From the IMG/VR virus record IMGVR_UViG_3300018049_000008: a stretch of 64,000 nucleotides of DNA, one strand, 5' to 3'. This stretch comes from an uncultured virus (IMG/VR IMGVR_UViG_3300018049_000008). Its lineage: Duplodnaviria; Heunggongvirae; Uroviricota; Caudoviricetes. The notes below the pieces were generated by a model that was not told the DNA's origin, did not search any database, and was given only the letters and a program-made list of their open reading frames with translations. Position numbers and translations under genes: made by a program. Shown piece by piece: positions 9,415 to 50,524 of this stretch. The number at the start of each line of letters is the position of its first letter. The stretch's first letter is position 1.

Positions 9415-11113
9415 CGTTTAGATATCGTGTCATACTTTCAATCAAGTTTACCTGAAGTTCGTTATACTCCTCTTTCTTTTCTGGTTTTTCTTCTTGTTCT
9501 TTTGAATCATCAGGAACTAACTTATATGTAGGAGCCGGCGGTGCTGGTTCTTCTTCTGGCTCATCTTCCATCTCTTCTTCAGGTTCATTATATCGTAGAT
9601 CTGTTGTTTCAGCTTTAATTTGCTCATCAAGATCTTTTATTTCTTCTTCTGATTGTTGCAATACATATCGACGAATATATTCATGAGAATAATATTTACC
9701 AACATATTCTTCCATCTCTCGCAATAGACCAATGCGATCGCGATTCATTTCTAGTGATTTTAATTCTTCGAAATAGTTATCGACAGCAAAGTCAAAATTA
9801 ATTTCATCTTTCCATTCTTCCCACTCTTCTGGCAAACAAATCTGCTTTAGGATAAGTTGTCTCTCGAGAAGTTTCAGAAATAATTCTGAGAACTTTTGTC
9901 GAAGACGTAGGATAAACTTACTGAACTTAACTTCGTCTCTGGTAATCTCTGTGGCTCTTCCAAGACTATATGTAGATTCTGGCTGTAATCGAGAAATAGG
10001 TACATTGAGCGCACGATATAAATTAGTTTGAAAATATTGTACGTCTTCAATATCTCCTAGATTAGCACCGCCTGGCAATGTAGTAATCTCTGTACCTTTA
10101 CCACCTTCTCTTCGTGGTAACCAGAAATCTTCTAGCATTGTCATGAATTTACGATCGTCTTTAATTTCGCCAGTTGCAGAATCATAAACTACTTTATTTT
10201 TGAACTTAGTCATGATATCAGACAAGTATTGTTCTGCTTTAGCTTTTGGCAGACCGCCTACATCAACATAGAAAATTCGACGTTCAGGCGCACGAGAAAT
10301 ACGATATACTACTAACGAATCTTCCATAGATCGCAGTTGATTAAGAGGTCGTATAGCTTTTTGTAACCAAGAGAGAATAAGTTTGTTATCTAAGCTTTGA
10401 TATCCACTGGTGTTATATACGATAGAATCTTTAGAAATTTTAATTCCTTCAGCATTTGCTGCAGGACTACTAGATCCGTACGAACTCATTGATGAACCGG
10501 TTATAGATCCAGTTCTCTTTAAAAATCCTGATGGACTGTACATATAGTATTCGTTAACAATTTTTTCAATTGTAACACCAGTCTTTGGATCTTTTTCTTT
10601 TTTAACTTCTCTTACTTTTTTGATATTGCGGGGATCAATATATCTTACTTCTAGAATACCTCGAGCCGGTTTCTTTTCATCTACAAGTATATGATAGTAT
10701 AAGCGACCATCAATATACCAACGACGAAACAATTCATAACTCAAACGATTAAATTCTAGAAGTTTTAATACTTCATCAAATTCTTCTTGAATTGATTTTT
10801 TAATTGATTCTTGTGTATCTAAATTGTCAAGGACAATACTAACTGTTTCTTCGTCTGAATCTTCGACAATAGCTTCATTACAGATTTCTTGAATTGCCAT
10901 GTCGAGAATAGGGTCAAACGAAATGGCACGATATTTGTTTACTAATTCTGCTTCGGTTCTGACTGAACCATCGAGATCGACATAAGTGCCATATACGCCG
11001 CCGGCGGCAACGGTTAATGCACCATCTTCGTTTGACGGAGGTACGAAGGAGACAAGCTTTTCTTTTTGCTTCTCTTCTTTCTTGCGGTTTATCTCAAATC
11101 CAAACAGTTCCAT
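9407..11113 (-). CDS. gp20: Portal protein (T4 gp20 family)
   Basis: LFGFEI, FRRWYIDGRLYYH, YIDPRNIKKVRE, EDSLVVYRISRAPERRIFYVDVG, MLEDFWLPRREGGKGTEITTLPG motifs. Confidence 0.98.
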   Translation of the reverse strand: MELFGFEINRKKEEKQKEKLVSFVPPSNEDGALTVAAGGVYGTYVDLDGSVRTEAELVNKYRAISFDPILDMAIQEICNEAIVEDSDEETVSIVLDNLDTQESIKKSIQEEFDEVLKLLEFNRLSYELFRRWYIDGRLYYHILVDEKKPARGILEVRYIDPRNIKKVREVKKEKDPKTGVTIEKIVNEYYMYSPSGFLKRTGSITGSSMSSYGSSSPAANAEGIKISKDSIVYNTSGYQSLDNKLILSWLQKAIRPLNQLRSMEDSLVVYRISRAPERRIFYVDVGGLPKAKAEQYLSDIMTKFKNKVVYDSATGEIKDDRKFMTMLEDFWLPRREGGKGTEITTLPGGANLGDIEDVQYFQTNLYRALNVPISRLQPESTYSLGRATEITRDEVKFSKFILRLRQKFSELFLKLLERQLILKQICLPEEWEEWKDEINFDFAVDNYFEELKSLEMNRDRIGLLREMEEYVGKYYSHEYIRRYVLQQSEEEIKDLDEQIKAETTDLRYNEPEEEMEDEPEEEPAPPAPTYKLVPDDSKEQEEKPEKKEEYNELQVNLIESMTRYLNDE

Positions 11114-27691: not shown

Positions 27692-27801
27692 CAGTCGTCA
27701 TCCTGATTTACTGCCGTATTCAATCTTTCTAATTCTTCATGACATTCTTGTGAACAACAAATATCTTCGCATTCACAATGACAAATTGCACACTCATTCA
27801 T
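27691..27801 (-). CDS. Unannotated 36-aa Cys-rich peptide MNECAICHCECEDICCSQECHEELERLNTAVNQDDD (putative zinc-binding)
   Basis: Below the ORF-track cutoff. GAGGT RBS; ATG overlaps the end of the upstream gene; TGA overlaps the next ATG (TGATG); fills the gap exactly; CxxC...CSxxC pattern. Confidence 0.7.
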   Translation of the reverse strand: MNECAICHCECEDICCSQECHEELERLNTAVNQDDD

Positions 27802-28669
27802 ATTCCACCTCTAACTTATCGATGTCTTTGCGCTCTGCGAAGATGTGATAGTAACAATTAACTTGATCTACGCTACGAATATGAACTTGATTATTTTCTA
27901 TTTTCTTAACCCATAAATGTTGAGGATGGCCGATCGCAGTTAATTGTACTGTGATTGTTGATTCATCTACAAGGCCTACCCAATAATCTGGCAAGTCGAT
28001 AACTTGTTCTGTAGTTTTACCTCGCACATACACACCAAATTCTGGTCCCTCTAATGATCCATGACGTAATCCCATGCCTTCTTTAGTAGGATGTGGAATG
28101 TCGAATGACTTAGACGTGGCATACAGCGCACCTTGAATACCAACACCGCCCGTGACTTTTAAAGCGCCTGTGCTAGTATTGCTAGACGCAGTTGCATTGG
28201 AAATTGTAGTAACTGCACTAAATGTTTTTGCACCGCTAAACGTCTGTGTAGTCGAAAGATGTGCGGTATCAGCATCCAAATAAGCAGAAGCAATAACACT
28301 ACCTTGCCATGTACCAGATGTTATAGTACCAAGTGTTGCTACGTTGGTTGATCCTGTCCAACCATCGAGACTATCAGGCGTTACTGCTCGAGTAGCATCA
28401 GTACCAGTATTTGTTTCAGCGATGGTGGCTAACTCAACTACGCCGGCATTGGTAGTATTAGCAGTTTCTGCTGTGATTGTAATAGATCCTGCACCATTAG
28501 TAATATCAATACCATTTCCTGGCGTGAGAGTACCAATAGTCGGACTTCTTGCGGCTCCAGTATTACCAATTACTAATTGGCCGTTAGTTGTTGGTAAAAG
28601 AGATGTGAAGTTTGCGTCAAGCTCAGTGTGTGTAAGAGCATCATCATCTGCACGTAGAATGATCGCCAT
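27794..28669 (-). CDS. Short tail-fibre-like protein (291 aa)
   Basis: LTHTELDANF N-terminus; T4 gp34/gp12-type repeat A.TT.AGVVELAT.AET.TGTD.TRAVTP; S.STGAL.V.GGVGI; C-terminal KSFDIPHP...LRHGSLEGPE.GVY.RG domain. Confidence 0.8.
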   Translation of the reverse strand: MAIILRADDDALTHTELDANFTSLLPTTNGQLVIGNTGAARSPTIGTLTPGNGIDITNGAGSITITAETANTTNAGVVELATIAETNTGTDATRAVTPDSLDGWTGSTNVATLGTITSGTWQGSVIASAYLDADTAHLSTTQTFSGAKTFSAVTTISNATASSNTSTGALKVTGGVGIQGALYATSKSFDIPHPTKEGMGLRHGSLEGPEFGVYVRGKTTEQVIDLPDYWVGLVDESTITVQLTAIGHPQHLWVKKIENNQVHIRSVDQVNCYYHIFAERKDIDKLEVEYE

Positions 28670-28672
28670 TTA

Positions 28673-29020
28673 CTAACTCCCTAAAATTGTAACGCTAGGT
28701 TTAATAAACACTTTACCATCCATAATTCTTTCTATATTTGTATTTCCTGATTCGTACATAACAACGTCATATACATATCTCACACTGGTATCGAGTGTAC
28801 TAGTCTGTGTCGAGTTCAAACTCAATTGAATTACACCACCGTTGGCGTCTACAACAGCAGTGCTGAATGAAATAGTGGTAGGATCAGAATAAGTTTTCTT
28901 CATTCCTCCACTAAACAATTTATTATTAATGTCTTTAGCTGCGCCATTTGTGTCAACAATGAATACTTTAATAGTAGCGTCAGCACCTTCGACTATGGTT
29001 AAATCTTCGGTACGGGCCAT
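28673..29020 (-). CDS. Small virion structural protein (115 aa)
   Basis: DL.I..GA....G.I.LSL...QT..L...RYVYDV......R...G.....PSVT pattern common in T4-like late regions; late promoter upstream. Confidence 0.7.
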   Translation of the reverse strand: MARTEDLTIVEGADATIKVFIVDTNGAAKDINNKLFSGGMKKTYSDPTTISFSTAVVDANGGVIQLSLNSTQTSTLDTSVRYVYDVVMYESGNTNIERIMDGKVFIKPSVTILGS

Positions 29021-29054: not shown

Positions 29055-29654
29055 TTATTCGAACCGTACTATATTAAAAGCGATCGAATAACGAGGTTTT
29101 TCTATTTGATTTATTAATACGCCATGTGTCATATGATTAGGAAAAAATAAACATGTGTTTTTTTCGGTGATTGGTTCAAAATGATCGGTTGTTATTAATG
29201 GATTGCATAAATCATCGCCTAATGAGCCATTTTGTAATGCCCATGAATAATCACCTTTTCTAATAAACATAATTTCACCTTGTTCTTGCTCTACATTTCT
29301 TGGATAATAACAACCAGATAAAACACATGTTGGGCCAGGATGAGAATGGTGCATATTGTAACAATGTTGGAAATTAATGTTCATCCATAAATTATCAACT
29401 TTTACATTTACATCAGATTCATAAGCATCTCTACATATTTGATTGGCAGCTTCGTTAATACGACCAATTAAATTATCTATATGTTTATTTTCATTTATAT
29501 TATATTCTCGTTGCCAGCCTCCAATATTTGATAAATCCCTCCCCTCATCTTGACTACAAATATAATCCATAAATTTAACAATTTCTTCAGAATTGACATC
29601 ATCAAAAACCATTTTAAAAATACTATCGACAAATATATCAATTCTTTCAATCAT
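29055..29654 (-). CDS. Putative 2OG-Fe(II) oxygenase, TIGR02466-like (199 aa)
   Basis: SN.GGWQ, W.NIN....YN..H.H, LSG.YY, FFP..M.H.V..N.....RYSIAFN. Confidence 0.85.
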   Translation of the reverse strand: MIERIDIFVDSIFKMVFDDVNSEEIVKFMDYICSQDEGRDLSNIGGWQREYNINENKHIDNLIGRINEAANQICRDAYESDVNVKVDNLWMNINFQHCYNMHHSHPGPTCVLSGCYYPRNVEQEQGEIMFIRKGDYSWALQNGSLGDDLCNPLITTDHFEPITEKNTCLFFPNHMTHGVLINQIEKPRYSIAFNIVRFE

Positions 29655-30520
29655 GGTTTTTCCTGTATGCCGTGTGTAGCATATGGACCTTTTAGAATTA
29701 AAGGTATATTAAAAAACAAAGCTTCGCCAAGTGGTTCAATGCTGTAGTATTGATGAGCAGGAATATAAACAATATCACCTTTGTTTACTGTAATTTCTTG
29801 TTCTATCTCTAATTTATCAAAAAAAACTTGATAATCTCTAACATCCCAATCTTCTGGAAAACTATGATCGCATAATGCAGAACATCTATTTTTATAAACA
29901 ATAATTTTAAATGATTCATCTACACCTAGAAAAAAATTACTCCACGTTTTAGCACATGGTAAATGTTTATCGGCATCTTTTGATGGATGATAATAAGCTT
30001 GAATACAACCACTCGTATGAACAGGTCGTACAGGCCAGACTCCATAATATTCAAGATTACAATAAAATTGGTTTAATAAAAATTGTAACAGTTCATAGAC
30101 ATGATTGTTAAAAATTTCAAATTTATTAATCATCATTGTTTGATTATTTTTTTCAATATATTCTAATGACAATTTACAATAATTAATAAAATCTTGATAT
30201 ATTTCTGATTTTTGATTTTGATCATCAAATTCTACACTATCAGGATTTTTTGTAGTAAGCGGAGTAAATTGAGGATTATTTTTATAATCCTCTAGAATTC
30301 TATTTGTAGTAGATTGAATTTCATCTGTTTGCATCTTAGATAGTGCAGTTACAAAATAATAAGTAAATTGGTCTTCTTTAAATAATATTAATTTTTTAAA
30401 ATCACCAATTGTACCGAGATGACAACACTCTTCTTCTCTTATAAAATTATTTAAAACAATAAGCTTATCATTAAAATAAATTTCTTCAAAATCTTTTTCG
30501 AATTGTTCTTTTGCAAACAT
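29651..30520 (-). CDS. Cupin/JmjC-like protein with degenerate metal ligands (likely start 30520, about 289 aa)
   Basis: C-terminal EITV.KGDIVYIPA..YY.I is JmjC/cupin-like; the TAATG overlap at 30518-30522 marks the likely true start (MFAKEQ). Confidence 0.55.
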   Translation of the reverse strand: MFAKEQFEKDFEEIYFNDKLIVLNNFIREEECCHLGTIGDFKKLILFKEDQFTYYFVTALSKMQTDEIQSTTNRILEDYKNNPQFTPLTTKNPDSVEFDDQNQKSEIYQDFINYCKLSLEYIEKNNQTMMINKFEIFNNHVYELLQFLLNQFYCNLEYYGVWPVRPVHTSGCIQAYYHPSKDADKHLPCAKTWSNFFLGVDESFKIIVYKNRCSALCDHSFPEDWDVRDYQVFFDKLEIEQEITVNKGDIVYIPAHQYYSIEPLGEALFFNIPLILKGPYATHGIQEKP

Positions 30521-31236
30521 TATTGTTTCTCTTCTAATGTATAATTGCTTTTTCGCATGCAATATTTTCTATACCATTGAGCTACACTCGCGAATCCTCG
30601 AGATCTAGCTTCTCGTTTTTCTACCATTGGACCATAAAAACCATTGTATGTTTCTTTCTTAAATGGTATAATATGCACTAAAGGTTCACCGGCTTTGATT
30701 GTAAAACTGCCTTTTTCTTTTGGCTTAAAAATAATATTGAGTGTAGTAAATCTCTCTGAATAATCAACTACGCCAGGGTAAATGTATAACTTCTCTACTA
30801 TATTCGAATGATAATGAGGAGGCATAATTAATAATGAAATATTTTTTGCCTTCACCATCCAAGGGGTTGTTAAATGTAATGGGTTAGCTGCGCAGTTTTG
30901 ATCAGGTATACCTGTAGCTATTTCTTCACTCATAGGACCACATACTTGATTACCTAATGGTTTATGTGATTCATTTCCAGATTTATCTCTAGACATTACA
31001 TATGCCATCGTATTTGGACCATCATTAAATACCTGAATCTCATCCCACGCTGTCAAAATCCATCCTAGATTTTTATAATCTACAATACCGGGGCAATCAT
31101 TAAATTTTTCTTTCCCAAATTTTTCTTTTTGCACGGCTTTATGAGGACAGGCATTAAAGGTTCGCGCTTTTTGAATTGGATGCAATTTATAATATGTGCC
31201 ATCCATATCATAAAATTCTACATTATTTTCAATCAT
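30520..31236 (-). CDS. DUF6065-like protein (238 aa)
   Basis: CPG..DY...GWIL..W, PW, PG.VD, .NI.F......FTIKAGEPLVHIIPF; paralog of the adjacent ORF. Confidence 0.6.
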   Translation of the reverse strand: MIENNVEFYDMDGTYYKLHPIQKARTFNACPHKAVQKEKFGKEKFNDCPGIVDYKNLGWILTAWDEIQVFNDGPNTMAYVMSRDKSGNESHKPLGNQVCGPMSEEIATGIPDQNCAANPLHLTTPWMVKAKNISLLIMPPHYHSNIVEKLYIYPGVVDYSERFTTLNIIFKPKEKGSFTIKAGEPLVHIIPFKKETYNGFYGPMVEKREARSRGFASVAQWYRKYCMRKSNYTLEEKQ

Positions 31237-31937
31237 CTTATTTCACGCAATTCTTTTGTATAAGTTCCTAATCGTGTTCGATTTGCAACATTAAGTTTAT
31301 CTCGCTGTTTGCATTCTTTTTCATTCATAGGTCTAATAATGTGTTTATGCTTTTGTCTTTTAAATGGCACGACATGTACTAATGGCATACCTGCGAGTAG
31401 TGTATCATCAAAATTTGGTTGATGCCAAATTACTGGAAAATTAACTGGACTATGATATTGATCAGTATCAACAACACCACTTAAAACTGTATATGGTAAA
31501 TTCCAGACACTAGGTAGTGGTTGAAATAAACACGACCATCCAGGCGGAGTTTTAATTCCATAATAATTTATAAACTTTAAAGGATCTTGTTTTCCAGTTT
31601 TCCAACCAGTTGATTTAAGTTGACTAAACGAATGTCTTTCAACAAATGGTAAAGTACTATCTTGCATATGTTCTGCAGATAATACACTACAATCGTCATT
31701 AGTAATAACATGAACATCGCCTTGAAGAGGCACAATATAACCAAGCGTCATAGCATCCAACATAGGCAAACATTTTTTTGCCGTGGCACCCGGCATAGTA
31801 TTCGTTCTTTGCTCAGTTTTTAAAGGAATCTTTCTAAACCATTCCGGAATGTGTTTATTTGCAGGTACTGGCTCAGGTAAAACTTCATGCAATTCTGGTT
31901 CAATAATAAATTCAATTTTATCGTTATTAAAAAACAT
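31233..31937 (-). CDS. DUF6065-like protein (234 aa)
   Basis: P.PA...IPEWF, T.KKC.P.LDAMT.GYI, KF.N...IKTPPGWSCLF, SGVVDTD.Y...VNFP, G.PLV..VPFKR. Confidence 0.65.
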   Translation of the reverse strand: MFFNNDKIEFIIEPELHEVLPEPVPANKHIPEWFRKIPLKTEQRTNTMPGATAKKCLPMLDAMTLGYIVPLQGDVHVITNDDCSVLSAEHMQDSTLPFVERHSFSQLKSTGWKTGKQDPLKFINYYGIKTPPGWSCLFQPLPSVWNLPYTVLSGVVDTDQYHSPVNFPVIWHQPNFDDTLLAGMPLVHVVPFKRQKHKHIIRPMNEKECKQRDKLNVANRTRLGTYTKELREIR

Positions 31938-32551
31938 TATATTTGACTATCTCCCCAAACCCAAAACACTAGCGTTTCTCTATTGCCAGATATAAGTGGA
32001 GTAACTTGGTGTAACATATGACTGTCAAAAAACACGACAGCACCTTTCTTCAATTCAATTGGATATAAATGGCCATTTCCATCTAAATCTATAGTTAATT
32101 CACCACCTTCATAGTCTTCAGGATCAGATAGCATAACAATACCAGAAATTCTTCTATCTTTTGGTCTATAGCCTTGTAATAGAACGTCTGTATGTGGATC
32201 ATATTTAGTGCCTGGCCCGTCGTAGATAACATATTGAATATCTTCCATACCTATAATTGGATAAAGAAAATGATCATAGTTAGCTCTGCCAACTAAATGA
32301 CCAATTTTTTCATAGACTATATTTGTATTTTGTTCTCTATGAAGGCTTGCTACTTTGCAATCCCGAACTTTATCTGTAGAATCAGGTACTTTTTTACCTT
32401 CAGATCGTTCAGAATATGTTTCACCAGATTCGAAATTAATAATTTTTTTAAAAAATCTAATTTTATTAATTTCATCTTCATCAAATACATTTTCATAAAC
32501 ACCAAATCGCTGGAGATTATGACCGGGAGTCAACTTCTCAATTTCATGCAT
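31937..32551 (-). CDS. 2OG-Fe(II) oxygenase, prolyl-4-hydroxylase/PKHD-like (204 aa)
   Basis: Y..H.D (HTD), R.IS..V.LSDP.DYEGGEL, F.S...H.VTP...G.R.TLV.W: complete HxD...H triad and the 2OG-binding Arg. Confidence 0.92.
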   Translation of the reverse strand: MHEIEKLTPGHNLQRFGVYENVFDEDEINKIRFFKKIINFESGETYSERSEGKKVPDSTDKVRDCKVASLHREQNTNIVYEKIGHLVGRANYDHFLYPIIGMEDIQYVIYDGPGTKYDPHTDVLLQGYRPKDRRISGIVMLSDPEDYEGGELTIDLDGNGHLYPIELKKGAVVFFDSHMLHQVTPLISGNRETLVFWVWGDSQI

Positions 32552-32566
32552 AATATAATTACCTTG

Positions 32567-34915
32567 TTAACCACTGTATTTTATATTTATATATCCTCTA
32601 TTAGTAGCATTATTATTACCAGCTGGGGAATTACCAACACTTACCGATAAGTCTGTACCATCTATACCATCGACTTCATTTGGATTAGTAATTTGTACAT
32701 ATGTTGCTGTTGCTGCAGCCGTAACATAATTTGTAACATTAGGTGCAGCACCCGGCGCAGTTACACTAACAGGAGTACCATCAGGAGTTGTCCATTGAAC
32801 TGTTGTGTCATCACCAGCAAGCCCGAGTGTAGTTCTTGCTGGATAATTAGTTACACGAGAAGGATAATTAGTAACATTAGTTACCGAATATGCCGGCTGA
32901 TTGCGTGATGGATAATTTGTTACAACTTGGTATGCTGGATTATTTCTAGCAGGATAGTTTGTTACAACAGAATATGCTGGATTATTACGCAATGGATAAT
33001 ATGTTGCAACCGCATATGCTGGATTATTACGCAATGGATAATTTGTTACAACTGAATAAGCCGGCTGATTACGTGATGGATAGTTTGTTACAACAGAATA
33101 AGCCGGATTGTTTCTAACAGGATAGTTTGTTACAACCGAATAAGCTGGATTATTACGCAATGGATAATTTGTTACAACAGAATATGCTGCTTGATTTCTA
33201 GCAGGATAATCTGTTTGATTTTGATATGCCGGATTGTTTCTAACAGGATAGTTTGTTACAACTGAATATGCTGGATTATTACGCAACGGATAGTTTGTTA
33301 CAACCGAATATGCTGGATTATTTCTAACAGGATAATCAGTTTGATTTTGGTATGCTGGATTATTTCTAGCAGGATAATTTGTTACAACAGAATATGCTGC
33401 TTGATTTCTAGCAGGATAATCTGTTTGATTTTGGTATGCTGGATTATTTCTAGCAGGATAATCAGTTTGATTTTGGTATGCTGGATTATTTCTAGCAGGA
33501 TAATCAGTTTGATTTTGGTATGCCGGATTGTTTCTAGCAGGATAGTTTGTTATAACCGAATATGCTGCTTTGTTTCTAGCAGGATAGGTTGTTACAACTG
33601 AATATGCTGCTTGATTTCTAGCAGGATAATCAGTTTGATTTTGGTATGCTGGATTATTTCTAGCAGGATAGTTTGTTGTTTGTGAATAAGCAGCTTTTCC
33701 CGAATATACAACTCGCGACGGGTAATACGCTGTAGCAGTAAATGTTTGATAGGTCGGAAAAAATACCTGCCCGAAAGTATAACCTGAAGAATAAGCTGCT
33801 TGAGTAAAAGAAGTGGTCCTTGCTGGGAAGTTAGCAACATTAGAATAAGCACCCTTTTGCTGTCTGCTAGGGTAATTAGTGATAACACTATAGGCACCTT
33901 TCACCTGTCTACTAGGATAATCTGTTTGATCTTGATAGGCAGCTTTCACCTGTCTACTAGGATAATCGGTTTGATTTTGATAGGCAGCCTTCTGCTGTCT
34001 ACTAGGATAATTAGTGATAACACTATAGGCAGATTTTTGCAGTCTGCCAGGATAATTAGTGATAACACTATAGGCAGCCTTCGCCTGTCTGCTAGGGTAA
34101 TTAGTGATAACACTATAGGCAGCTTTCACCTGTCTACTAGGATAATCCGTTTGATTTTGGTAAGCAGCTTTTTGCTGTCTGCTAGGGTAATTAGTGATAA
34201 CACTATAGGCGGCCTTTTGTTGTCTACTAGGATAATCGGTTTGATTTTGGTAAGCGGCCTTCTGCTGTCTACTAGGGTAATCCGTTTGATTTTGGTAAGC
34301 AGCTTTTTGTTCTCTACTAGGATAATTAGTGATAACACTATAGGCAGCTTTCACCTGTCTGCTAGGATAATCGGTTTGATTTTGGTAAGCAGCTTTTTGT
34401 TCTCTACTAGGGTAATTAGTGATAACACTATAGGCGGCCTTCTGCTGTCTACTAGGATAATTAGTTTGATTTTGGTAAGCAGATTTTTGCAACCGAGAAG
34501 GATAATTGGTTTGATTCTGATAGGCAGCTTTTTGCAACCGAGAAGGATAATTAGTTTGATTTTGGTAAGCAGATTTTTGCAACCGAGAAGGAAAATTGGT
34601 TTGAATCTGATAAGCAGCTTTCTGTAATCTAGAAGGATAGTTTGTTTGATTCTGATAGGCAGCCTTCTGCAATCGTGATGGATAATTAGTAATTGCATTA
34701 GTTTGATAAACTGCTTTAGTTGTACTATATGCTGCTTTTAATGTTGGAGCACTAGCACCACCACCTCTAGCCTCAATCTCAATGATTTGACGACCATAAG
34801 GAATAGAGATAGGAGTAGCATCAGTTGTACCTGACGTTGCTTCTTTATATCTAGTTTCAGAAAAAGTGGCAGCCCACGTTCTATCTAGAAAACTTTTTCC
34901 GCCTCCTATTGGCAT
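32567..34915 (-). CDS. 782-aa Tyr/Pro/Asn-rich repeat protein with two mirror-arranged repeat arms; putative hairpin fibre
   Basis: GAGG RBS; arm 1 has 15-aa units KAAY[QNQT/SVIT](N/D)YPSRxx; arm 2 has 14-aa units PAY[QNQT/SVVT](N/D)YPxRN(N/Q); unique centre and termini. Confidence 0.85.
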   Translation of the reverse strand: MPIGGGKSFLDRTWAATFSETRYKEATSGTTDATPISIPYGRQIIEIEARGGGASAPTLKAAYSTTKAVYQTNAITNYPSRLQKAAYQNQTNYPSRLQKAAYQIQTNFPSRLQKSAYQNQTNYPSRLQKAAYQNQTNYPSRLQKSAYQNQTNYPSRQQKAAYSVITNYPSREQKAAYQNQTDYPSRQVKAAYSVITNYPSREQKAAYQNQTDYPSRQQKAAYQNQTDYPSRQQKAAYSVITNYPSRQQKAAYQNQTDYPSRQVKAAYSVITNYPSRQAKAAYSVITNYPGRLQKSAYSVITNYPSRQQKAAYQNQTDYPSRQVKAAYQDQTDYPSRQVKGAYSVITNYPSRQQKGAYSNVANFPARTTSFTQAAYSSGYTFGQVFFPTYQTFTATAYYPSRVVYSGKAAYSQTTNYPARNNPAYQNQTDYPARNQAAYSVVTTYPARNKAAYSVITNYPARNNPAYQNQTDYPARNNPAYQNQTDYPARNNPAYQNQTDYPARNQAAYSVVTNYPARNNPAYQNQTDYPVRNNPAYSVVTNYPLRNNPAYSVVTNYPVRNNPAYQNQTDYPARNQAAYSVVTNYPLRNNPAYSVVTNYPVRNNPAYSVVTNYPSRNQPAYSVVTNYPLRNNPAYAVATYYPLRNNPAYSVVTNYPARNNPAYQVVTNYPSRNQPAYSVTNVTNYPSRVTNYPARTTLGLAGDDTTVQWTTPDGTPVSVTAPGAAPNVTNYVTAAATATYVQITNPNEVDGIDGTDLSVSVGNSPAGNNNATNRGYINIKYSG
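32584..32591 (-). promoter_or_regulatory. Candidate late promoter TATAAATA for the oxygenase cluster
   Basis: Exact consensus inside the last codons of the 782-aa gene, 33 nt upstream of the ATG at 32551. Confidence 0.5.
32836..33697. repeat. Tandem 42-bp coding repeat array (arm 2)
   Basis: About 18-19 units with a 42-nt period, e.g. GGATTATTTCTAGCAGGATAATCAGTTTGATTTTGGTATGCT. Confidence 0.9.
33857..34687. repeat. Tandem 45-bp coding repeat array (arm 1)
   Basis: About 18 units with a 45-nt period, e.g. CTACTAGGATAATTAGTGATAACACTATAGGCAGC. Confidence 0.9.
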
Positions 34916-34930
34916 ATTACATCCTCTTTA

Positions 34931-36109
34931 TTACTGTGCCCAACCAGCATTTCGAATTGATAATGAACCATATATTTTACCAGCAATTACTACAAAATTA
35001 TATATGTCAATTCCAGATGACGATGGAGGTTCTACTGATTCTGCCCAATATATAGCATCTCCTTCTAGTTCCCCTGGCCACGTAGCTTCTCTTGCGGTGC
35101 CATTGTTATCTATGACTAAAGTAAACGCTGCAGCTTCACCAGCTGCCGTTGGGAAATTTGTAAAATCAACCGAATAGTTAGCATTTGGCGTAAATGTATA
35201 TACCGAACCAGAATTTACGTTTATGTTTACTGAATTTCCTGTTGATGCAGCTACTACAGTTTCCTTAAAATAATCTTCTACTTGAATACGGCGCGCCATG
35301 ATGTCAGTTGTTACATCTAAATCACCACTAATATATGTTTGTGTAGCATTAACTTTTAATCTTTCAGATCCATTTGATACCAATCTTATAGATGCAGTAG
35401 CATCAAATTCTAATTTTGTTGCAACATCGCCGCTATGAGTAATACTACTAAGAATCTCTACATTATCAACACCATCAATTGTGTTATCAGATGCCGAGAG
35501 GTTAGAAAAATGAAGACCGTCGTTATCAAAATATGCCCGTCTTCGATCACCAATAATTATCGATATTTCATCAGCTGATGTGCTTGACCAAGTACCACCA
35601 AAATTAGGATCTGGTACATCATCGTTCGTCAAAGCACCAAAAATAATACCAGTGGCAGTATCATCTTGTGATAGTATCATTGATGTGTTTATAGAATTAA
35701 CACCAATGCCGCCATCAGCTTTTTCTGTATTTGTAGCAAATGTACTAGTAGGACTAACACCTCTTACTTGTATACCATCACCAGCATTAATTGATAGCAT
35801 AGTAGTATTAGCACTTGCTATATTTGCATTGCCAGCTGTAATATCAATTTGATTGTTCGAGAATCCGATCGTGGTATCAGTGTCGCCGACGTGAGTAATA
35901 TTGGTGCCAATATATAAGCCACCTGTAATTTGTGCAGTGCCAACTACATCAAGCGGATATGATGGTGATGAATCGTTTATGCCGACCCGATTGTTTACGG
36001 TATCAACGAATAAGACATTGGTGTCAACTGCTAAATTGGCACCAACCTCCATTGAGCCAGTAACAACTAACCCGTCTAATGTGTCAAATTTTTGTGAGGT
36101 AGCAGTCAT
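34931..36109 (-). CDS. Tail-fibre-like protein (392 aa)
   Basis: NL.VDTN.LFVD..NNRVGIN.SSP...LDV.G and I.H.GDT.T.I.F fibre motifs; C-terminal domain shared with 24030..24671. Confidence 0.8.
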   Translation of the reverse strand: MTATSQKFDTLDGLVVTGSMEVGANLAVDTNVLFVDTVNNRVGINDSSPSYPLDVVGTAQITGGLYIGTNITHVGDTDTTIGFSNNQIDITAGNANIASANTTMLSINAGDGIQVRGVSPTSTFATNTEKADGGIGVNSINTSMILSQDDTATGIIFGALTNDDVPDPNFGGTWSSTSADEISIIIGDRRRAYFDNDGLHFSNLSASDNTIDGVDNVEILSSITHSGDVATKLEFDATASIRLVSNGSERLKVNATQTYISGDLDVTTDIMARRIQVEDYFKETVVAASTGNSVNINVNSGSVYTFTPNANYSVDFTNFPTAAGEAAAFTLVIDNNGTAREATWPGELEGDAIYWAESVEPPSSSGIDIYNFVVIAGKIYGSLSIRNAGWAQ

Positions 36110-36119
36110 TTACTTCTCT

Positions 36120-36533
36120 CTATAATTTGAAAATGCCTGAAGTACTCCACGTAATATCTACGTTAGAACCATCTGGCGTAATCGGAAACCCGTCTATATT
36201 TGTATCAAGCCACGCTACTAATCGTGAAGTAGCAGTGTTAGTAGTATCAATCCAAAATAAAAGTGCTTCTGACTCGGGTGTTGTATTTGCCACACTTTCG
36301 AAAACAACGTCATCTGCATCTAGTACACCATTAGTTACTGTAACATTTGTTAATGTCACTGTAGCTGCCACTCCAACTGACGAATTAAGATCAGCATAAA
36401 ATTCATCTGTAGATCCAAACATAGTTACATCAGAATCTATAAGTGATACTTTTAAATTACCTGCATTGAGAGCAACATCATTACTAGCACTAATCAATGC
36501 TTCTTTGTATTTATCATAGATTACATTTGCCAT
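36120..36533 (-). CDS. Small virion structural protein (137 aa)
   Basis: MAN.IY..YKE.L...LKV.L....DA.DV.F...L.A..D....P..P.G..V.I.W...GIF.L pattern of a phage structural family; TAATG-coupled. Confidence 0.7.
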   Translation of the reverse strand: MANVIYDKYKEALISASNDVALNAGNLKVSLIDSDVTMFGSTDEFYADLNSSVGVAATVTLTNVTVTNGVLDADDVVFESVANTTPESEALLFWIDTTNTATSRLVAWLDTNIDGFPITPDGSNVDITWSTSGIFKL

Positions 36534-44764: not shown

Positions 44765-47700
44765 TTAATGTAGTCTAGTAGTTCTAATATGTCTGGTTAG
44801 TTTATTATGTACAACGACGTTGTCGGCTGTGTAAGTATTATCACCATCAACGTGGAAGTTAAACACTTCAATACTATCATCAAACTTATGAATATTTATT
44901 ACAACTTCAGAAGATGTCATACCAGCATCAGTTAACGTTATAATTGTATCACCAATTTCTAGTTGTGATATTTCCATATCAGGATGCATTTGTGCTGCTT
45001 TAACTGCATCAACTGCTCGCCATCCTTCTGAGGTTAAAATAGGATGATATGCTGTCAATGTTAGTTTATCATTGATAGTAGCCATCGGTCTCAATTCAAC
45101 TGGAATTGGGAACAATTCTACAACATCATTAAACTCGCCATGTTGACCTACAACTTCATCGCCTACGACAATATCTTGAATATTCTTATAAGAGAAATCA
45201 CTCATTAATATTTTCGTATTTGCTACAAAGCATCCATGACCACCATGTGTTGTTTTTGGTGCTGGATCTGGTGTAGCCGGCGTCACCGGATTAGTTGCAA
45301 TCGGAGGAATGCTAGGCGGCACCGAAGGTGATCTATACGGCGGCCTTCTAGTAGGTACCTTATCCGGTATTGGATTAGGTGCTGGCTGTCTTGGCGGCTG
45401 CTTAATCACTTTAGGCGGCACAGGCAAAGGATCCGGCATAGGCGGCGGAACTTTTGGTGGTGCCTTCACCGGAGGTACTACGGGCGGAGGACTTCCCCGA
45501 ATGATTGGTGGCCTAACAACTACCGGAGGTACAGCTGGTTTCACCGGTGGCGCTACTGCAATTGAACAATCCGGATTTGTTGGTGTTGGATTATCACAGC
45601 CATCGTCTTGTTTTGGTGCTGGTCGTACAGGACTCGTACAAACAGGCGGTGGTGGTTTTGGTGCCACATATTTACATACTGGAACATTATTTGGATCTGA
45701 TGTCGACAATTTAATGGCACACTTACCATTTGTTCCTCTTTTACCAGTAAAAACAAATGTATTTAATGTTTTATCAATAGTAGCCGTACAAAATGTTTTT
45801 GCTACTGTGCCAGATGGAGGACACGCAGGTGGAGCAGGAATAACAGGTTCAGGCACTGGTACCGGATTAGGAACAGGTATTACATAACCACATTTAGTTG
45901 AATTAGGAGCCCTATTACCAACTTGAGTACCATAATTGCCATCAGAAACATATGTTACTAATGTTGTACCAATACATTTAGTATAGAGGAATGTGCCTTT
46001 AGCTGATGAAGGTGGTCGTGTATTTCTTTCGGTCGCACCTGTGTCAAAGATTGGATCAGCAACTGTAATTGTAGGATAACAGATTTCATAGTTAAATATT
46101 TCACCACCCTTAATAGCACGTACTGTGATCCATTTTCCTTTTGTATAATCATAAGGAATGGAAATTTTTCCAGCACCTTTAAAACAATTGTAATTAATAG
46201 TGCCCGATGGTGAACCGGTCAAGGTTATAGTTCCGGCTGCAGACAATGCTACAAACCACGGATTATCGGCATATGAAATAGCTGAATTTCTACTATTTTT
46301 AACAGGATATAATTTTTTATAAAGAGCAATTGCATCAGGCGGTGTTACGGCGACTGGTGTTTGTGATGCACTTGACCAAACTATATTTGCATTTTCCAAT
46401 CCACGCGTAGGCTTAGTAGATGATTGAATAATTTCAAATGCAACCTTGCCCCTCGGAATATAAAAAGTAAGATCGATATTTCTAGTTGAATTATCAGTAA
46501 AATCGGGTGCTAAGAAACTAGCTTCTTCCCAAACATTTTGTAGTTTAGACCAACTACCCGTTGAATCTCCTATATTCTTTGTATTTCTATTCGATACAAA
46601 TTGACATGCATCAGTAATGGCAGGTGGCTGTGGCTCAGGAATATATGGTCCATAAGTAGCAAATTTTTGTGATAATAATCTTTTGCGTGAAAATGGAAAA
46701 GTAACTTTATTTCCTGTTCTATATGGTCCTGACTGTGCATCGAGCTTATAATCAATTGTAGATGTACCACGAGCTGGTTGCAATACATATTCATAAATTG
46801 ATGCATTATATTCAGGATTTTGAATATTTGCCAGATCATAGTTTTCAAAATTATCAACAAAGAAACCAAACTTAAATCTTTCAAGTGTAGAATCTACCGA
46901 ACTTGGGATTTTTCTATTCTTAACTGAGTCTTCAAGTTCTGATATATTTTGATTATATTCTAATGCTTCTAGACGTCGCTCTAATTTTGCGATGTCTGAC
47001 ATTGTATAACCTTCATTTTGATCGTCAATTCTGGTAGCTTTGATAGAATATCGATCACCACGATATCCTGAAGTATCGCGTTCGCTGATGACATTTGTGT
47101 ATAGAATTGTAGTTATGTCTGTCGACAATACTTGTGGTAAACTAGGATAGGGAGCAACATCTACCTTATATAAGACAATCGCGTTTGGATCTGATTTATC
47201 TAATTTGTTGGTATCTTGAGCAATATGAAAATCACCATCAATATCGATCATGATCTCATCTGTTCTTCCCTTATATGATCTTATATCGTATATAATATCG
47301 CCCTGCGGCCGTGGGAATTTTAGACCACTGAGACCAGTAAATGCAATTGTTCCACTCGGATCGGTTGATGCTGTTGCATCTGTGGTAGCATCAGCAGCAG
47401 TTTGATCTACAAATGGTCTAAAGTCAAATGCTTCTCGTAAATCATACGTAATGCCTTGTACTGTAATAACAGGAATTTCAAGGTTATGAATATTCGTGCC
47501 AGCTGTGGTCAATGCATCTAAATCTTTTTCATCATCAATAGGATATGAGTCAACAGTTTTTAAGCCGCCGCGGGCAGCTGGTTCCAAATAATCTACTTCG
47601 ACCAAAATCGTTGCTGCTAATGACACAGATGATGTATCATTTTTTCGAAGTGATCCTAAACCCCAATAATTAGCAGTCTGACCCATATCAACAAAGAATT

Positions 47701-50524
47701 CATTTGTAATATCTGTTGCCGCTGTTGTCGTACCATTATATACGGCGCGCAATCTAAAGATACCCGGTATACCTAATGATCTATTTGCTTCTTTTGTAAA
47801 ACCAGCTGCAGTCGTTAATTTGACATATCTTTTTCTTCGTACAGTAAACGCTATTGGTGAAGTATTTTCACTCTTTAAATTATATGTTGCAGTTAGTGCA
47901 TTAGTAATATCTGAACTAAATGTAATACCGAGATCTACAATCAACGAAGAATAAGGTGCCGTAGATGATGCAGTAAATCTATTAATAGGAACATACGCGG
48001 GGAATACGCGCTTTAGTGTGCCAGCTGTAGGATAAGATCCATTTTTAATTACTCTAATTGCATCTTGTCCTACTACTTCAATGATGAGCGAAGTATTTAC
48101 ACCATCTGTAATCCAATCTCCTGCTTGAACATTCGAAGAGAAATTAGGTGTACCTGCTGTTGCAGTTAGAAGAGTATAAGTACCTGAAGTATCAGTAGTA
48201 AACGTCAAACCAGATGCAAAAGTCGAACCTGCAACTAAATCTTGATTAGGTACAAGTATAAGTTCTTTTCTTTCAGCATCTGTAAGATTTCCAATATATG
48301 GAAATATCGTAGAAGCTGCAGCACTGATAGAAATTGTACCAGCAGAACCTACAGTCAAATCATCTGTACTAGTACGATATGTGTATGTAACATTATTAGC
48401 TGCATCACCATCAAGAGTTGTGGCTCGACCAGTATCTACGATTAGACTTTGATTTGTTGATCCATAGATATCTGCTTTTTGTCGATATGATGCTGGTATA
48501 AACTCGCCGTTAGCATCACCAGTTCCTGTGCTCTTTAGTTCACGTAAGGTATATTCACTACCAGATGTCAAAACAACATCTGCAGCACCAAATAATGATC
48601 CAGCAGATGAATATACACTTCGTACATCGCGCTGGAAGTTTTTACCGGATTGCATTGTAATATCAAATAAGTGAAGTCTATATGTTGCCGATGGTGTGCC
48701 CGGTGTTCCATTTTCTAATACAATACTTCTAATTTTAGCAGAACCAACCTGTGTACCCATGCCGGCAGTTCCACTGGCAGGACCATTTGCATCATCTAAC
48801 TTCGATGCAGCAGTACTATATAATTCAATATCATCTGCATTTTTAAAATCAAATACACCAGTTAAATTATTAACAATGATGTAGTTAGCATATTCCATAT
48901 CTCGACCAAGGGCGGTTTCTGATAAAACCTCCAATCCCTTAGGTACTTCTTTAATGAAGTTAGCAATTGTTTTTACTCGATAACCATTAATATATGCATG
49001 ACCGGGATCAATTACATATGTAAAATGTGTATCTGTATTTGCAATATTTTCTGATGATTTAGTGGCCAATCGGAAGGGATCGAGAGTATAGTTACCCGAT
49101 TCTTCATAGGTACGTCGGGCAATCATATCACCTAACTTACCGTATTGTGTCAGTTCATTAATAGCAAAAGGTCGACCATTATTAAATTTAATAATTGGAA
49201 AATATGCAGCATCAGATTCTTCTTCAGCTGATGTTTTAGCAACCAATCTTGGTATTAATTTAAGTCTGTTAGCACCCGGTGCACCTTCGTTTGAAAAACC
49301 TTGTGCATTATCATACAACGTAGAATCTGTAAAAACGTTTACAATCGATTCAGTTGTATCGAAACCAACCGACAAATCTGATGGAGTATTAGAATATTTG
49401 CTGACAATTGCAAATTGAGTATCAACTTTTAGAAAATGACCTTTCTGATAAATTTTACCTTCAGTTACATTAACGCCAAAACCATAACCAATCGGATCAG
49501 TAAACTGTGCAGATGATGCAACTTTAACTCTAGTTACATAATCCTGTGCAGTAAGAGTTAATTGGCCAACCTGAAGTGTAGTTGCAGTTGTAGAATAAAG
49601 AGTTACATATGGTAATATATCATAATCTTTACCACCAGTAGAAATTTCTGCTGATGCAATAGAACCAGTACGAGTTGTAGTAATTTTGCCTGTTGCACCA
49701 GTTCCTCGAATCTTAACAACTTTTACTTCTTGACCGGTTGTTTGACCAATAAGAGTTGTACCTTCTTCCAAATTTTCCCAGAATGTAGCATCTGGCGTTG
49801 GCGCCAAATCAGAATCAACTGGTTTAATACGAAGTAATACAGTATTTTCTTCTTCTAATACTTCTTGTGCAGCGTATGTTTCAACACGAACCGTCGGTGT
49901 GCCACTGTCATCCAATAATACTTCAGATGATCCTAATGATATACCTTCAGATGTACCAGATGTTACGTTTGATACTTCAATTGCAGACAAAATAACTACA
50001 GTATCTGAGTTAGCAAAGCCTGATGACGGGTCGGTAATAATAATATCGTGTAGTCTTTTATCCGCAGAATAAATTTTTAATACTTCGTCTTCTACAAAAC
50101 CATCAATATCGAAATTAGTACCGGAATCAGTATATTCAACATATAGGGTGTTAAGATCAGGATCAGATCCTTCAAAACCTGCAATTGTATGAGTAATTCG
50201 TGCGTTTACTTTGTTTGTTTGCCCCTCAACAAAGTAACCAGTATATCGAGCTACATCAACCGCTGCACCAGATTCTGCATTATCGAGAATCTTAACGTAT
50301 GGCATTGAGTATTTAAATGAGAATTGGCATCCTGATAAAATCGTTCCGGATCTCAATATATGATCACCAAATTCTTCAATCTGGTGTTGCAGCATAGCCT
50401 GCAATTGATTCATCTCACGTACTTGGACTGCCGTTGCTGGCTTAAATAAGATACGATAGTATTCGCTATTTGTATCGTAATCGTCGAAGTAAGGAGAAAC
50501 CGATAAATTTGTAGTAAGGGGCAT
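44765..50524 (-). CDS. Very large virion structural protein (1919 aa), VrlC/DUF4815-like, with a Pro-rich linker and C-terminal Hint domain
   Basis: TNL.VSPYFDDY...YYRILFKP..AVQ.RE.NQLQ, APGA.RLK, ARRTYEESGNY, YTMSDI.KLERR...LEY, RFK.GFFVDNF. Confidence 0.85.
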   Translation of the reverse strand: MPLTTNLSVSPYFDDYDTNSEYYRILFKPATAVQVREMNQLQAMLQHQIEEFGDHILRSGTILSGCQFSFKYSMPYVKILDNAESGAAVDVARYTGYFVEGQTNKVNARITHTIAGFEGSDPDLNTLYVEYTDSGTNFDIDGFVEDEVLKIYSADKRLHDIIITDPSSGFANSDTVVILSAIEVSNVTSGTSEGISLGSSEVLLDDSGTPTVRVETYAAQEVLEEENTVLLRIKPVDSDLAPTPDATFWENLEEGTTLIGQTTGQEVKVVKIRGTGATGKITTTRTGSIASAEISTGGKDYDILPYVTLYSTTATTLQVGQLTLTAQDYVTRVKVASSAQFTDPIGYGFGVNVTEGKIYQKGHFLKVDTQFAIVSKYSNTPSDLSVGFDTTESIVNVFTDSTLYDNAQGFSNEGAPGANRLKLIPRLVAKTSAEEESDAAYFPIIKFNNGRPFAINELTQYGKLGDMIARRTYEESGNYTLDPFRLATKSSENIANTDTHFTYVIDPGHAYINGYRVKTIANFIKEVPKGLEVLSETALGRDMEYANYIIVNNLTGVFDFKNADDIELYSTAASKLDDANGPASGTAGMGTQVGSAKIRSIVLENGTPGTPSATYRLHLFDITMQSGKNFQRDVRSVYSSAGSLFGAADVVLTSGSEYTLRELKSTGTGDANGEFIPASYRQKADIYGSTNQSLIVDTGRATTLDGDAANNVTYTYRTSTDDLTVGSAGTISISAAASTIFPYIGNLTDAERKELILVPNQDLVAGSTFASGLTFTTDTSGTYTLLTATAGTPNFSSNVQAGDWITDGVNTSLIIEVVGQDAIRVIKNGSYPTAGTLKRVFPAYVPINRFTASSTAPYSSLIVDLGITFSSDITNALTATYNLKSENTSPIAFTVRRKRYVKLTTAAGFTKEANRSLGIPGIFRLRAVYNGTTTAATDITNEFFVDMGQTANYWGLGSLRKNDTSSVSLAATILVEVDYLEPAARGGLKTVDSYPIDDEKDLDALTTAGTNIHNLEIPVITVQGITYDLREAFDFRPFVDQTAADATTDATASTDPSGTIAFTGLSGLKFPRPQGDIIYDIRSYKGRTDEIMIDIDGDFHIAQDTNKLDKSDPNAIVLYKVDVAPYPSLPQVLSTDITTILYTNVISERDTSGYRGDRYSIKATRIDDQNEGYTMSDIAKLERRLEALEYNQNISELEDSVKNRKIPSSVDSTLERFKFGFFVDNFENYDLANIQNPEYNASIYEYVLQPARGTSTIDYKLDAQSGPYRTGNKVTFPFSRKRLLSQKFATYGPYIPEPQPPAITDACQFVSNRNTKNIGDSTGSWSKLQNVWEEASFLAPDFTDNSTRNIDLTFYIPRGKVAFEIIQSSTKPTRGLENANIVWSSASQTPVAVTPPDAIALYKKLYPVKNSRNSAISYADNPWFVALSAAGTITLTGSPSGTINYNCFKGAGKISIPYDYTKGKWITVRAIKGGEIFNYEICYPTITVADPIFDTGATERNTRPPSSAKGTFLYTKCIGTTLVTYVSDGNYGTQVGNRAPNSTKCGYVIPVPNPVPVPEPVIPAPPACPPSGTVAKTFCTATIDKTLNTFVFTGKRGTNGKCAIKLSTSDPNNVPVCKYVAPKPPPPVCTSPVRPAPKQDDGCDNPTPTNPDCSIAVAPPVKPAVPPVVVRPPIIRGSPPPVVPPVKAPPKVPPPMPDPLPVPPKVIKQPPRQPAPNPIPDKVPTRRPPYRSPSVPPSIPPIATNPVTPATPDPAPKTTHGGHGCFVANTKILMSDFSYKNIQDIVVGDEVVGQHGEFNDVVELFPIPVELRPMATINDKLTLTAYHPILTSEGWRAVDAVKAAQMHPDMEISQLEIGDTIITLTDAGMTSSEVVINIHKFDDSIEVFNFHVDGDNTYTADNVVVHNKLTRHIRTTRLH
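44804..45232 (-). other. Hint (intein-like) auto-processing domain, 143 aa, C1...HN followed by K
   Basis: Block A CFVANTKILMSD..YKNIQDI.VGD; block B LTAYHPI; block F VFNF.V; block G NTY.A.N.VVHN. Confidence 0.9.

Follow-up and report, generated by a model that had tools for sequence, protein, structure and literature searches.

The 64,000-nucleotide (nt) stretch of DNA analysed here, from an uncultured virus of the Caudoviricetes (IMG/VR record IMGVR_UViG_3300018049_000008; hereafter the window), contains at positions 32567..34915, on the minus strand, an open reading frame (ORF) with an ATG start and a 782-amino-acid (aa) product that is built largely from two arrays of short repeat units mirroring each other about the centre of the chain. 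Four independent mirror features were found in this protein, namely equal numbers of units on the two sides (20 + 20), a complementary order of two unit types, paired odd linkers and paired 2-residue insertions. Our preferred reading, to which we assign a probability of about 0.6, is that the protein serves a T4-like phage as a structural fibre whose chain folds back on itself, in which both termini contribute to the base and a variable tip lies at the distal end.

Mirror relations between the two repeat arms

Splitting the protein at the motif [YF]P[SAGVL]R yielded 42 anchors with spacings of 15 (×19), 35, 18, 14 (×18), 16 and 7 residues, and Tandem Repeats Finder reported two arrays with periods of 45 and 42 nt. 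The arms, of 306 aa (arm 1) and 293 aa (arm 2), flank a central unit, unit 21 (Table 1), which corresponds to the unique aromatic tip singled out by an earlier, sequence-only reading of the same DNA and lies 1.3 % of the inter-domain length away from the midpoint. The whole protein contains 93 Tyr and 68 Pro residues, with neither His nor Cys; residues 61-694 hold 58 of the Pro residues (one or two per 14-15-aa unit) and only six Gly.

Individual units were typed by regular expression as Q (YQNQT-like) or S (YSV(I/V)T-like), with YAVAT and YQVVT scored as S-like, which gave, from N to C, the orders QQQQQSQSQQSQSSSQQS for units 2-19 and QSSQQQSQSSQSSSSSSS for units 23-40. Read outward from the centre, a Q unit faces an S unit at 17 of 18 positions; the sole exception is an S:S pair at units 7:35, and Q:Q never occurs. 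This complementarity, which the sequence-only reading had already described, withstood permutation testing, with an exact hypergeometric P = 3.8e-4 and P = 9.7e-4 once corrected for taking the best among 36 alignments (direct or mirrored, matching or complementary, offsets from -4 to 4; 200,000 shuffles), whilst a first-order Markov null gave P = 1.0e-4 (500,000 simulations). Among 36 circular shifts, the runner-up complement score was 15, obtained in direct order at shift 11. Furthermore, QVK linkers precede units 9, 14, 18 and 19 in arm 1 and N(Q/K)A linkers precede units 24, 25, 29 and 34 in arm 2, and all four pairs of odd linkers coincide under the map i <-> 43-i (chance 1/3876; given the Q/S pattern, 1/330). 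Cores of 14 residues, carrying 2-residue insertions, are present only at unit 1 (AVYQTNAITNYPSR) and unit 41 (PAYSVTNVTNYPSR). Both the opposed linkers and the shared insertion in the outermost units had likewise been noted from the letters, and both were borne out.

At the DNA level, a search of the gene for inverted repeats returned only two 16-nt pairs, neither of which joins the arms; the mirror is therefore a property of the protein rather than of a nucleic-acid palindrome, and the latter was ruled out as its cause. The opposite-strand frames of the gene specify only unrelated peptides. Within each arm, the DNA identity of a unit to its best match of the same type is 83-100 % (79 % for the atypical unit 40), pointing to arrays that are still undergoing duplication or homogenisation, and the persistence of the mirrored order despite this argues for selection. 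The gene is 100 % identical in three other public assemblies (L001, L002 and L003), the stretch is present in no fewer than 11 DNA runs that carry the label salt marsh metagenome, and, in Logan short-read contigs from the four runs searched, two DNA runs cover all 30 bins with no joints or indels. Contigs from RNA libraries with the salt marsh metagenome label contain parts of the gene (32400-35100; 19 of 30 bins in each of two runs). They hint that the phage may have been active in situ, but are no proof of transcription and may reflect DNA carry-over.

Relatives and the reach of the mirror rule

The family to which the repeat protein belongs is very small, with 18 representatives at E ≤ 1e-3 among 1.84 billion proteins, no match in 185,579 species genomes and no credible match in 50,697 phage records; a single hit in the latter, to a Ruminococcus phage protein (33 % over 38 % of the query, E = 1e-5), was judged not credible. 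Searches for close variants with other unit counts returned only 100 % identical copies for the window protein and only the queries themselves for the proteins of L006 and L008. The P0012 query retrieved one 87 % relative and the P0002 N-domain query three proteins, and a degenerate DNA pattern of the unit uncovered one new member, L020. Common to all members are the N-terminal GGK.F.DRTWA.TF...PYG.Q..E.E.RGG and the C-terminal ...G(Y/F)INIKYD, with large differences in between; the termini are conserved and the centre varies, from 0 to ~54 aa, in relatives.

Mirroring was complete by length in the L006 protein (625 aa, 45 % identity), which has 12 units, an aromatic 26-aa centre and a further 12 units. 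Its core lengths form a perfect palindrome over 25 cores (12, 19, 12 ×7, 28, 17, 10, then the central 26, then 10, 17, 28, 12 ×7, 19, 12), as do its linker lengths over 24 linkers (4, 4, 5, 4, 5, 5, 5, 5, 4, 5, 5, 5, then mirrored); these palindromes were reached in 5e-6 (cores) and 5.7e-4 (linkers) of 200,000 shuffles. Moreover, extra C-half units in its N arm stand opposite extra N-half units in its C arm, as predicted by antiparallel apposition, and xNPAQ linkers stand opposite x(V/T)PDQ linkers in all four pairs. The shorter P0005 (352 aa) is palindromic with 6 + 6 units, its centre being an ordinary 5-aa linker with no distinct apex. The L008 protein (647 aa) carries the family termini, but its repeat, of 18-19 aa, is unrelated; the two types of unit are mirror-complementary at 10 of 10 positions (P = 1/120) in arms of 232 and 231 aa that flank a 54-aa, Cys-bearing centre. 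In P0001 and P0003/L007, tokens of 12, 4 and 19, read by eye, are mirrored at both ends, and the P0003/L007 protein has 13-aa HPPSP linkers at mirrored sites, also read by eye. The least repetitive stretch lies at most 3.2 % from the inter-domain midpoint in 7 of 13 family rows, and no clear two-type complement was seen in P0014, P0012, P0019 or P0017. The mirror features of the relatives are lineage-specific and cannot all stem from one ancestor. Unit parity between arms is the rule in the family, whilst residue parity need not be exact.

Two further observations concern the apex of relatives. In P0003 (L007 8001-9686), the apex motif (..YTVLVYGDKGGYRTR.., residues ~232-262) recurs inside the protein's own C-terminal domain (..YRTIIVYGEKSGYRVQ.., ~475-500), such that the base, too, seems to display a tip-like module. 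The apex regions of L008 (8001-9944) and P0017 hold one Cys pair each, which suggests disulfide-closed tip loops in some lineages, the window protein being devoid of Cys.

Predicted base domain, proposed architecture and alternatives

Residues 1-81 and 672-782 of the window protein, folded as separate chains with ESMFold2, gave a median ipSAE of 0.74 (runs of 0.74, 0.72 and 0.79), against 0.00 for the best of three controls; of 157 solved complexes, 116 reach this mark, as do 2 of 215 mismatched pairs, counts that apply only roughly as an alignment of our own was used. At least 83 % of contacts recur between the runs, and the predicted local distance difference test (pLDDT) score of the partners is at least 80 (81-84 for the C-terminal domain). 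A predicted strand at 46-54 contacts 774-779, 699-704 and 720-723 with the lowest expected error, and residues 28-69 and 684-706 fall in the confident predicted interface, which thereby includes both half units. A profile of the family found no match at E ≤ 1 among all PDB chain sequences, so the predicted binding is not the memory of a known complex. An AlphaFold2 (AF2) model of P0012, a 267-aa relative (22-row alignment), has pLDDT values of 67-86 in its N part and 63-86 in its C part, with a disordered middle. Taken as one domain, the two parts were aligned by VIA-align to single-domain jelly rolls at Z 5.0-6.3 (85-114 residues, range ~12-267), values below the Z of 8 under which the tool calls matches common and too weak for naming a family; Foldseek returned no match to this model at E ≤ 0.001 in PDB or BFVD. 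The two ends of the chain are thus predicted to make up a single beta-sandwich, which lends support to the earlier suggestion of one domain closed by both termini.

In the fold-back fibre that we favour, the first ~60 and last ~90 residues would combine into this beta-sandwich base, the base end presumably being attached to the baseplate or tail. The chain would leave a loop of the base as arm 1 (20 units), turn at the variable aromatic apex and come back as arm 2 (20 units), with the arms antiparallel and in register, such that unit k lies opposite unit 42-k and each N-half adjoins the C-half of the partner unit. Packing would be heterotypic, in that a polar Q unit (YQNQT) must face a beta-branched S unit (YSV(I/V)T), giving each rung a defined partner, and an insertion or duplication in one arm would need a counterpart in the other; such a rule would explain the fixation of insertions in pairs. 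The apex would then be the likely exposed, host-contacting end. Antiparallel in-register arms, joined termini and a distal variable centre make up the simplest model for all of the mirror features. The computations show the mirror patterns, the place of the gene and the predicted joining of the termini, whereas we infer that the arms touch, that they belong to the same chain, how many chains assemble, how long the rod is and what the tip does. A hairpin formed by a single chain is favoured, given the conserved ends and hypervariable centre; the 90 nm of the sequence-only reading would be an upper bound, for fully extended strands.

More tentatively, and at somewhat less than even odds, we propose that a two-letter heterotypic code fixes the register of a very long, otherwise degenerate beta-type zipper, and that such a code has arisen more than once in one small family; alternatively, the Q/S order may simply satisfy the demands of packing. 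Candidate code pairs would be Q/S in the window phage, YSY-type/VTGVF-type in a sister lineage with an unrelated repeat, and NPAQ/(V/T)PDQ linkers in a third lineage. The identical units of long repetitive fibres can pair out of step, and the family may show a natural, sequence-readable solution to this register problem, in the form of heterotypic unit pairs and length-matched insertions across the fold-back. If true, the pairing code would be a protein analogue of complementary strands, with duplications and insertions forced into mirrored pairs, and the family would offer a clear case of forced co-expansion of two arrays (6+6, 10+10, 12+12 and 20+20 units). It would also represent a new fibre architecture for phage adhesion devices, in which the variable, probably host-contacting part is found mid-gene and not at the C-terminus, a matter of consequence for annotating receptor-binding proteins in metagenomes, and it would supply a principle by which beta-rich nanofibres of programmable length and specific register could be designed.

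A number of observations weigh against the fold-back fibre, some of them in their own right and others, taken up below, by favouring an alternative. The arms are without a usable model: the full-length AF2 prediction (4-row alignment) has a mean pLDDT of 28.6, and the Atlas model of the window protein has a predicted template-modelling score (pTM) of 0.27, with structure matches at template-modelling (TM) scores of at most 0.21. Of the long antiparallel hairpin put forward from sequence, what stands is the mirror patterning here and in relatives together with the predicted joining of the termini; the arms themselves could not be modelled. Units 1 and 41 fall outside the confident ESMFold2 interface, and the protein is a presumed rather than a demonstrated component of the virion. 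Amongst the relatives, the direct (non-mirror) comparison of the L008 arms already scores 8/10, because these arms differ in composition, and P0001-P0003 have an unmatched 4-aa extra, PTGPN, in the N arm. The L020 protein (556 aa) reads as 9 vs 12 cores around its aromatic segment, or alternatively as 11 vs 11 if a Gly-rich linker of 13 aa is taken as the centre, in which case extras of 16 and 9 aa have no counterpart and 4 of 10 linker pairs differ. The comparison of arms between homologues, which had been set beforehand as a test of the hairpin, nevertheless came out mostly in its favour, with matched arms in L006, P0005 and L008, mirrored outer tokens in P0001/P0003 and L020 as the exception. 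In 6 of the 13 family rows (P0005, P0003, P0004, P0012, P0019 and P0017) the least repetitive stretch is not central.

The mirror pattern fits a hairpin within one chain and antiparallel pairing between chains alike, and an antiparallel homo-oligomer, with extended chains lying head to tail about a dyad at the centre and the N segment of each completing its neighbour's C-terminal domain to give a two-ended strut or tie, predicts every mirror statistic equally well. The predicted binding of N- and C-terminal segments would fit it too, these having been folded as separate chains, as would the plain linker at the centre of P0005. We nevertheless consider this arrangement rather unlikely, as conserved termini and a most variable, aromatic or Cys-bearing centre (0 to ~54 aa) suit an exposed apex better than self-contact at a dyad, phage fibres are polar with one attachment end, and no evidence of a dimer was obtained. 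The difference in arm period, 15 aa in arm 1 vs 14 aa in arm 2, means that a strict residue-by-residue zipper would require a bulge in each arm-1 unit, and it sits more easily with a linear parallel fibre (e.g. a trimeric beta-spiral or beta-helix with a central knob), the arms of which would lie apart and owe their mirror to a symmetric third partner or some other assembly constraint. Most known phage fibres are parallel trimers, and the conserved Pro in a repeat of 15 residues is reminiscent of the adenovirus shaft; as such a fibre leaves unexplained the mirror complementarity, the palindromic insertion lengths of L006 and the N- and C-terminal segments as one domain, we regard it as improbable.

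There is, finally, the matter of whether the Q/S order is arbitrary, and the mirror a post hoc coincidence in one repetitive gene, a product of duplication history or a misassembly. The pattern was indeed spotted post hoc, simple tandem expansion could account for the five outermost Q units and the seven outermost S units, and a shuffle of run order only, the most conservative test for the window protein, gives 0.021, a test that cannot fall below ~0.02 (the floor was worked out as 1 in 48 orders). In addition, the order of the arrays derives from short-read assemblies in which no contig bridges more than ~5 units, leaving the arrays as wholes unspanned. Set against this are the independent mirror features of the window protein, including linkers at a conditional 1/330, and those of three further lineages, as well as the three identical assemblies and the lack of a DNA palindrome; misassembly, moreover, would scramble unit order rather than mirror it. 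We therefore view an origin of this kind as very improbable.

Gene neighbourhood and comparison with known systems

The repeat protein gene is part of a T4-like structural module that, along the minus strand, comprises gp48-, gp5-, gp25-, gp6-, gp7- and gp8-like genes followed by giant fibre-like proteins, and continues with the phrog_644 protein, a 392-aa fibre-like protein, the repeat protein, five cupin/oxygenase-fold genes, more fibre-like genes and gp13- through gp20-like genes. It is located amongst fibre-like genes between the homologues of gp6/gp7/gp8 and those of gp13/gp14/gp15; in S-PM2, the gp8-gp13 slot is annotated as 'virion structural protein' genes. The gp6 homologue is less than 40 % identical to those of the nearest cultured phages, Caulobacter Cr30 and Sinorhizobium phiM12. 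The coordinates of the gene, its segments and its neighbours are provided in Table 1.

Table 1. Segments of the repeat protein and neighbouring genes in the window
Feature	Position	Strand	Remarks
Repeat protein with putative fold-back, whole ORF, 782 aa	32567..34915	-	Stop codon 32567-32569; identical copies in other assemblies
Residues 1-60, conserved N-terminal segment	34736..34915	-	Motif GGK.F.DRTWA.TF ... PYG.Q..E.E.RGG, from alignment; predicted to add strands to C-terminal sheet
Residues 61-67, extra N-half unit AAYSTTK	34715..34735	-	Mirror partner is C-half unit 688-694; doubled half units also in homologues
Residues 68-366, arm 1, units 1-20	33818..34714	-	15-aa period: 12-aa core xAYxxxT(N/D)YPxR + 3-aa linker
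Residues 367-401, central unit 21, aromatic non-repetitive apex, TTSFTQAAYSSGYTFGQVFFPTYQTFTATAYYPSR	33713..33817	-	From anchor splitting; least repetitive stretch
Residues 402-687, arm 2, units 22-41	32855..33712	-	14-aa period: 12-aa core as in arm 1 + 2-aa linker
Residues 688-694, extra C-half unit VTNYPAR	32834..32854	-	From anchor splitting; on predicted interface list
Residues 695-782, conserved C-terminal domain	32570..32833	-	Motif G..G.DTTV ... DGT ... APG ... G(Y/F)INIKY, from alignment; predicted models
Upstream partners: 392-aa fibre-like protein and 137-aa phrog_644 protein	34931..36533	-	Synteny kept
137-aa phrog_644 protein	36120-36533	-	
2-oxoglutarate (2OG)-Fe(II) oxygenase, PF13640, prolyl-hydroxylase-like	31937..32551	-	Directly downstream; likewise in L006, L007, L008, L020
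Four more cupin/oxygenase-fold genes: two DUF6065-like (phrog_7084), one Cupin_8-like, one 2OG-FeII_Oxy_5	29055..31937	-	Counterparts in L006 and L008 include JmjC_2/Cupin_8
115-aa phrog_3304 protein	28673-29020	-	'L-shaped tail fiber protein assembly'
291-aa tail-collar-fibre-like protein	27794-28669	-	
384-aa collagen-like tail fibre protein	8260-9414	-	
1919-aa baseplate-module protein	44765-50524	-	

A phrog_644-like gene, a fibre-like gene and the repeat protein gene, with the PF13640 oxygenase following at once, were found at all five loci, with JmjC_2/Cupin_8, 2OG-FeII_Oxy_5 and DUF6065 genes nearby downstream. The resulting cassette of four or five cupin/2OG-oxygenase-fold genes occupies 29055-32551 (minus strand) in the window, 9922-14866 in L006, 9686-13860 in L007, 9988-12599 in L008 and 3955-5177 in L020. 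It is possible, if doubtful, that the enzymes of this cassette hydroxylate the invariant Pro and/or the Arg or Asn/Asp of the YPxR units; were this so, phage 2OG oxygenase cassettes would gain a testable link to a Pro/Arg/Asn-rich structural substrate. The oxygenase family is present in 278 records of the phage collection, in which no search found the repeat protein, so that adjacency alone is weak evidence for modification. We know of no report on the targets of phage 2OG oxygenase cassettes.

Several neighbouring genes deserve mention in their own right. The gene of the phrog_644 protein always lies two upstream of the repeat protein gene; relatives of this protein occur in 153 phage records, 109 of which are mycobacteriophages that carry it amongst minor tail genes; one relative, in Pseudanabaena phage Pam2, is annotated as 'minor tail subunit'. 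Just downstream of the oxygenase cassette, the phrog_3304 protein adjoins the tail-collar-fibre-like protein, and the two may form a fibre chaperone pair. The 1919-aa baseplate-module protein contains DUF4815 (E = 6.9e-42) and, near its C-terminus, a Hint/Vint-type autoprocessing domain (residues 1764-1845), which might act as an intein-like or self-cleaving element within this giant structural protein. The collagen-like tail fibre gene, with many PHROG tail-fibre matches, lies just downstream of the portal gene and coincides with the strongest AT skew of the window (-0.237 in 8001-10000).

With regard to known systems, the topology proposed for the window protein has analogues in SMC/Rad50/MukB and in colicin Ia, in which the termini join as a head, a long antiparallel arm is formed within the molecule, and the apex is functional, serving as a hinge, as a zinc hook or, for colicin Ia, as the receptor-binding domain; irregularities in one arm are matched in the other. 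The likeness is one of topology only, as there is no homology, the arms of these proteins are alpha-helical coiled coils and they are not virion proteins, whereas in the window protein a Pro every 14-15 residues and a composition rich in Tyr, Thr, Asn and Val exclude long helices. The shafts of adenovirus, reovirus and PRD1 are triple beta-spirals, one-way parallel trimers with a repeat of ~15 residues and a conserved Pro/Gly turn. They resemble the window protein in the periods of 15 and 14 aa and the invariant Pro, and the weak fold matches obtained for the base domain include PRD1 P5 (1yq8, Z 5.4); a parallel trimer, however, predicts no mirror relation between the halves of a chain. Assignment as a collagen-like tail fibre was rejected, given the scarcity of Gly in residues 61-694 and the lack of Gly at every third residue.

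For the base domain, P0012 aligns to TNF/C1q-like and viral jelly rolls (4-1BBL, APRIL, C1q, collagen VIII NC1 and Bdellovibrio fibre tips) at Z 5-6, with no sequence relation. Language-model look-alikes of the whole window protein and of P0012 belong to viral clusters carrying PF21722 (Gly_rich_2), with scores of 0.79 and 0.86 that lie below the bar of 0.9, and, by eye, ..IP.G....E.E.RGG.. and ..G.INIKY resemble the start and end of the PF21722 domain in mycobacteriophage NiebruSaylor gp57. Membership of PF21722 was rejected: hmmscan of 17 members or fragments gave no Pfam match at E ≤ 10, the nearest virus record (G001) had 0 matches, and hhalign against NiebruSaylor gp57 returned a probability of 0.15 %. 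A distant link of the base domain to PF21722 is accordingly a lead only.

Amongst phage fibres, the point of comparison is the receptor-binding needle of T4 gp37 (PDB 2XGF), in which, in work of 2010 by Bartual and colleagues, the chain reportedly runs out to a distal host-binding head and back. The window protein would likewise be the fibre of a T4-like phage, and an out-and-back chain would place its flanking segments together proximally, an arrangement with which the mirror patterns and the predicted N/C binding are compatible. For the needle, dimensions of ~150 x 25 Å are given in PMC3004832. The two proteins are unrelated in sequence (no PDB sequence matched at E ≤ 1, and no gp37 family turned up in Pfam, PHROGs or NCBIfam). 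The core of the gp37 needle is held by iron via His-x-His motifs, and the window protein, having no His, is without such a motif. Furthermore, the arms of gp37 span ~50 residues vs ~300 here, with neither repeat units nor a two-type unit code, and the fold-back makes up one end of a long fibre in gp37 as opposed to the whole protein here. The full-text literature searched yielded no account of the family, of its motifs or of a fold-back fibre made of repeat units, in keeping with the sequence-only claim that no phage fibre of this architecture had been described; that claim has to be narrowed by gp37, which is also said to run out and back, albeit without repeat units or a unit code. Fold-back of a phage fibre thus has a reported precedent in gp37, and it is the proposed repeat-unit pairing code that would be the unusual part.

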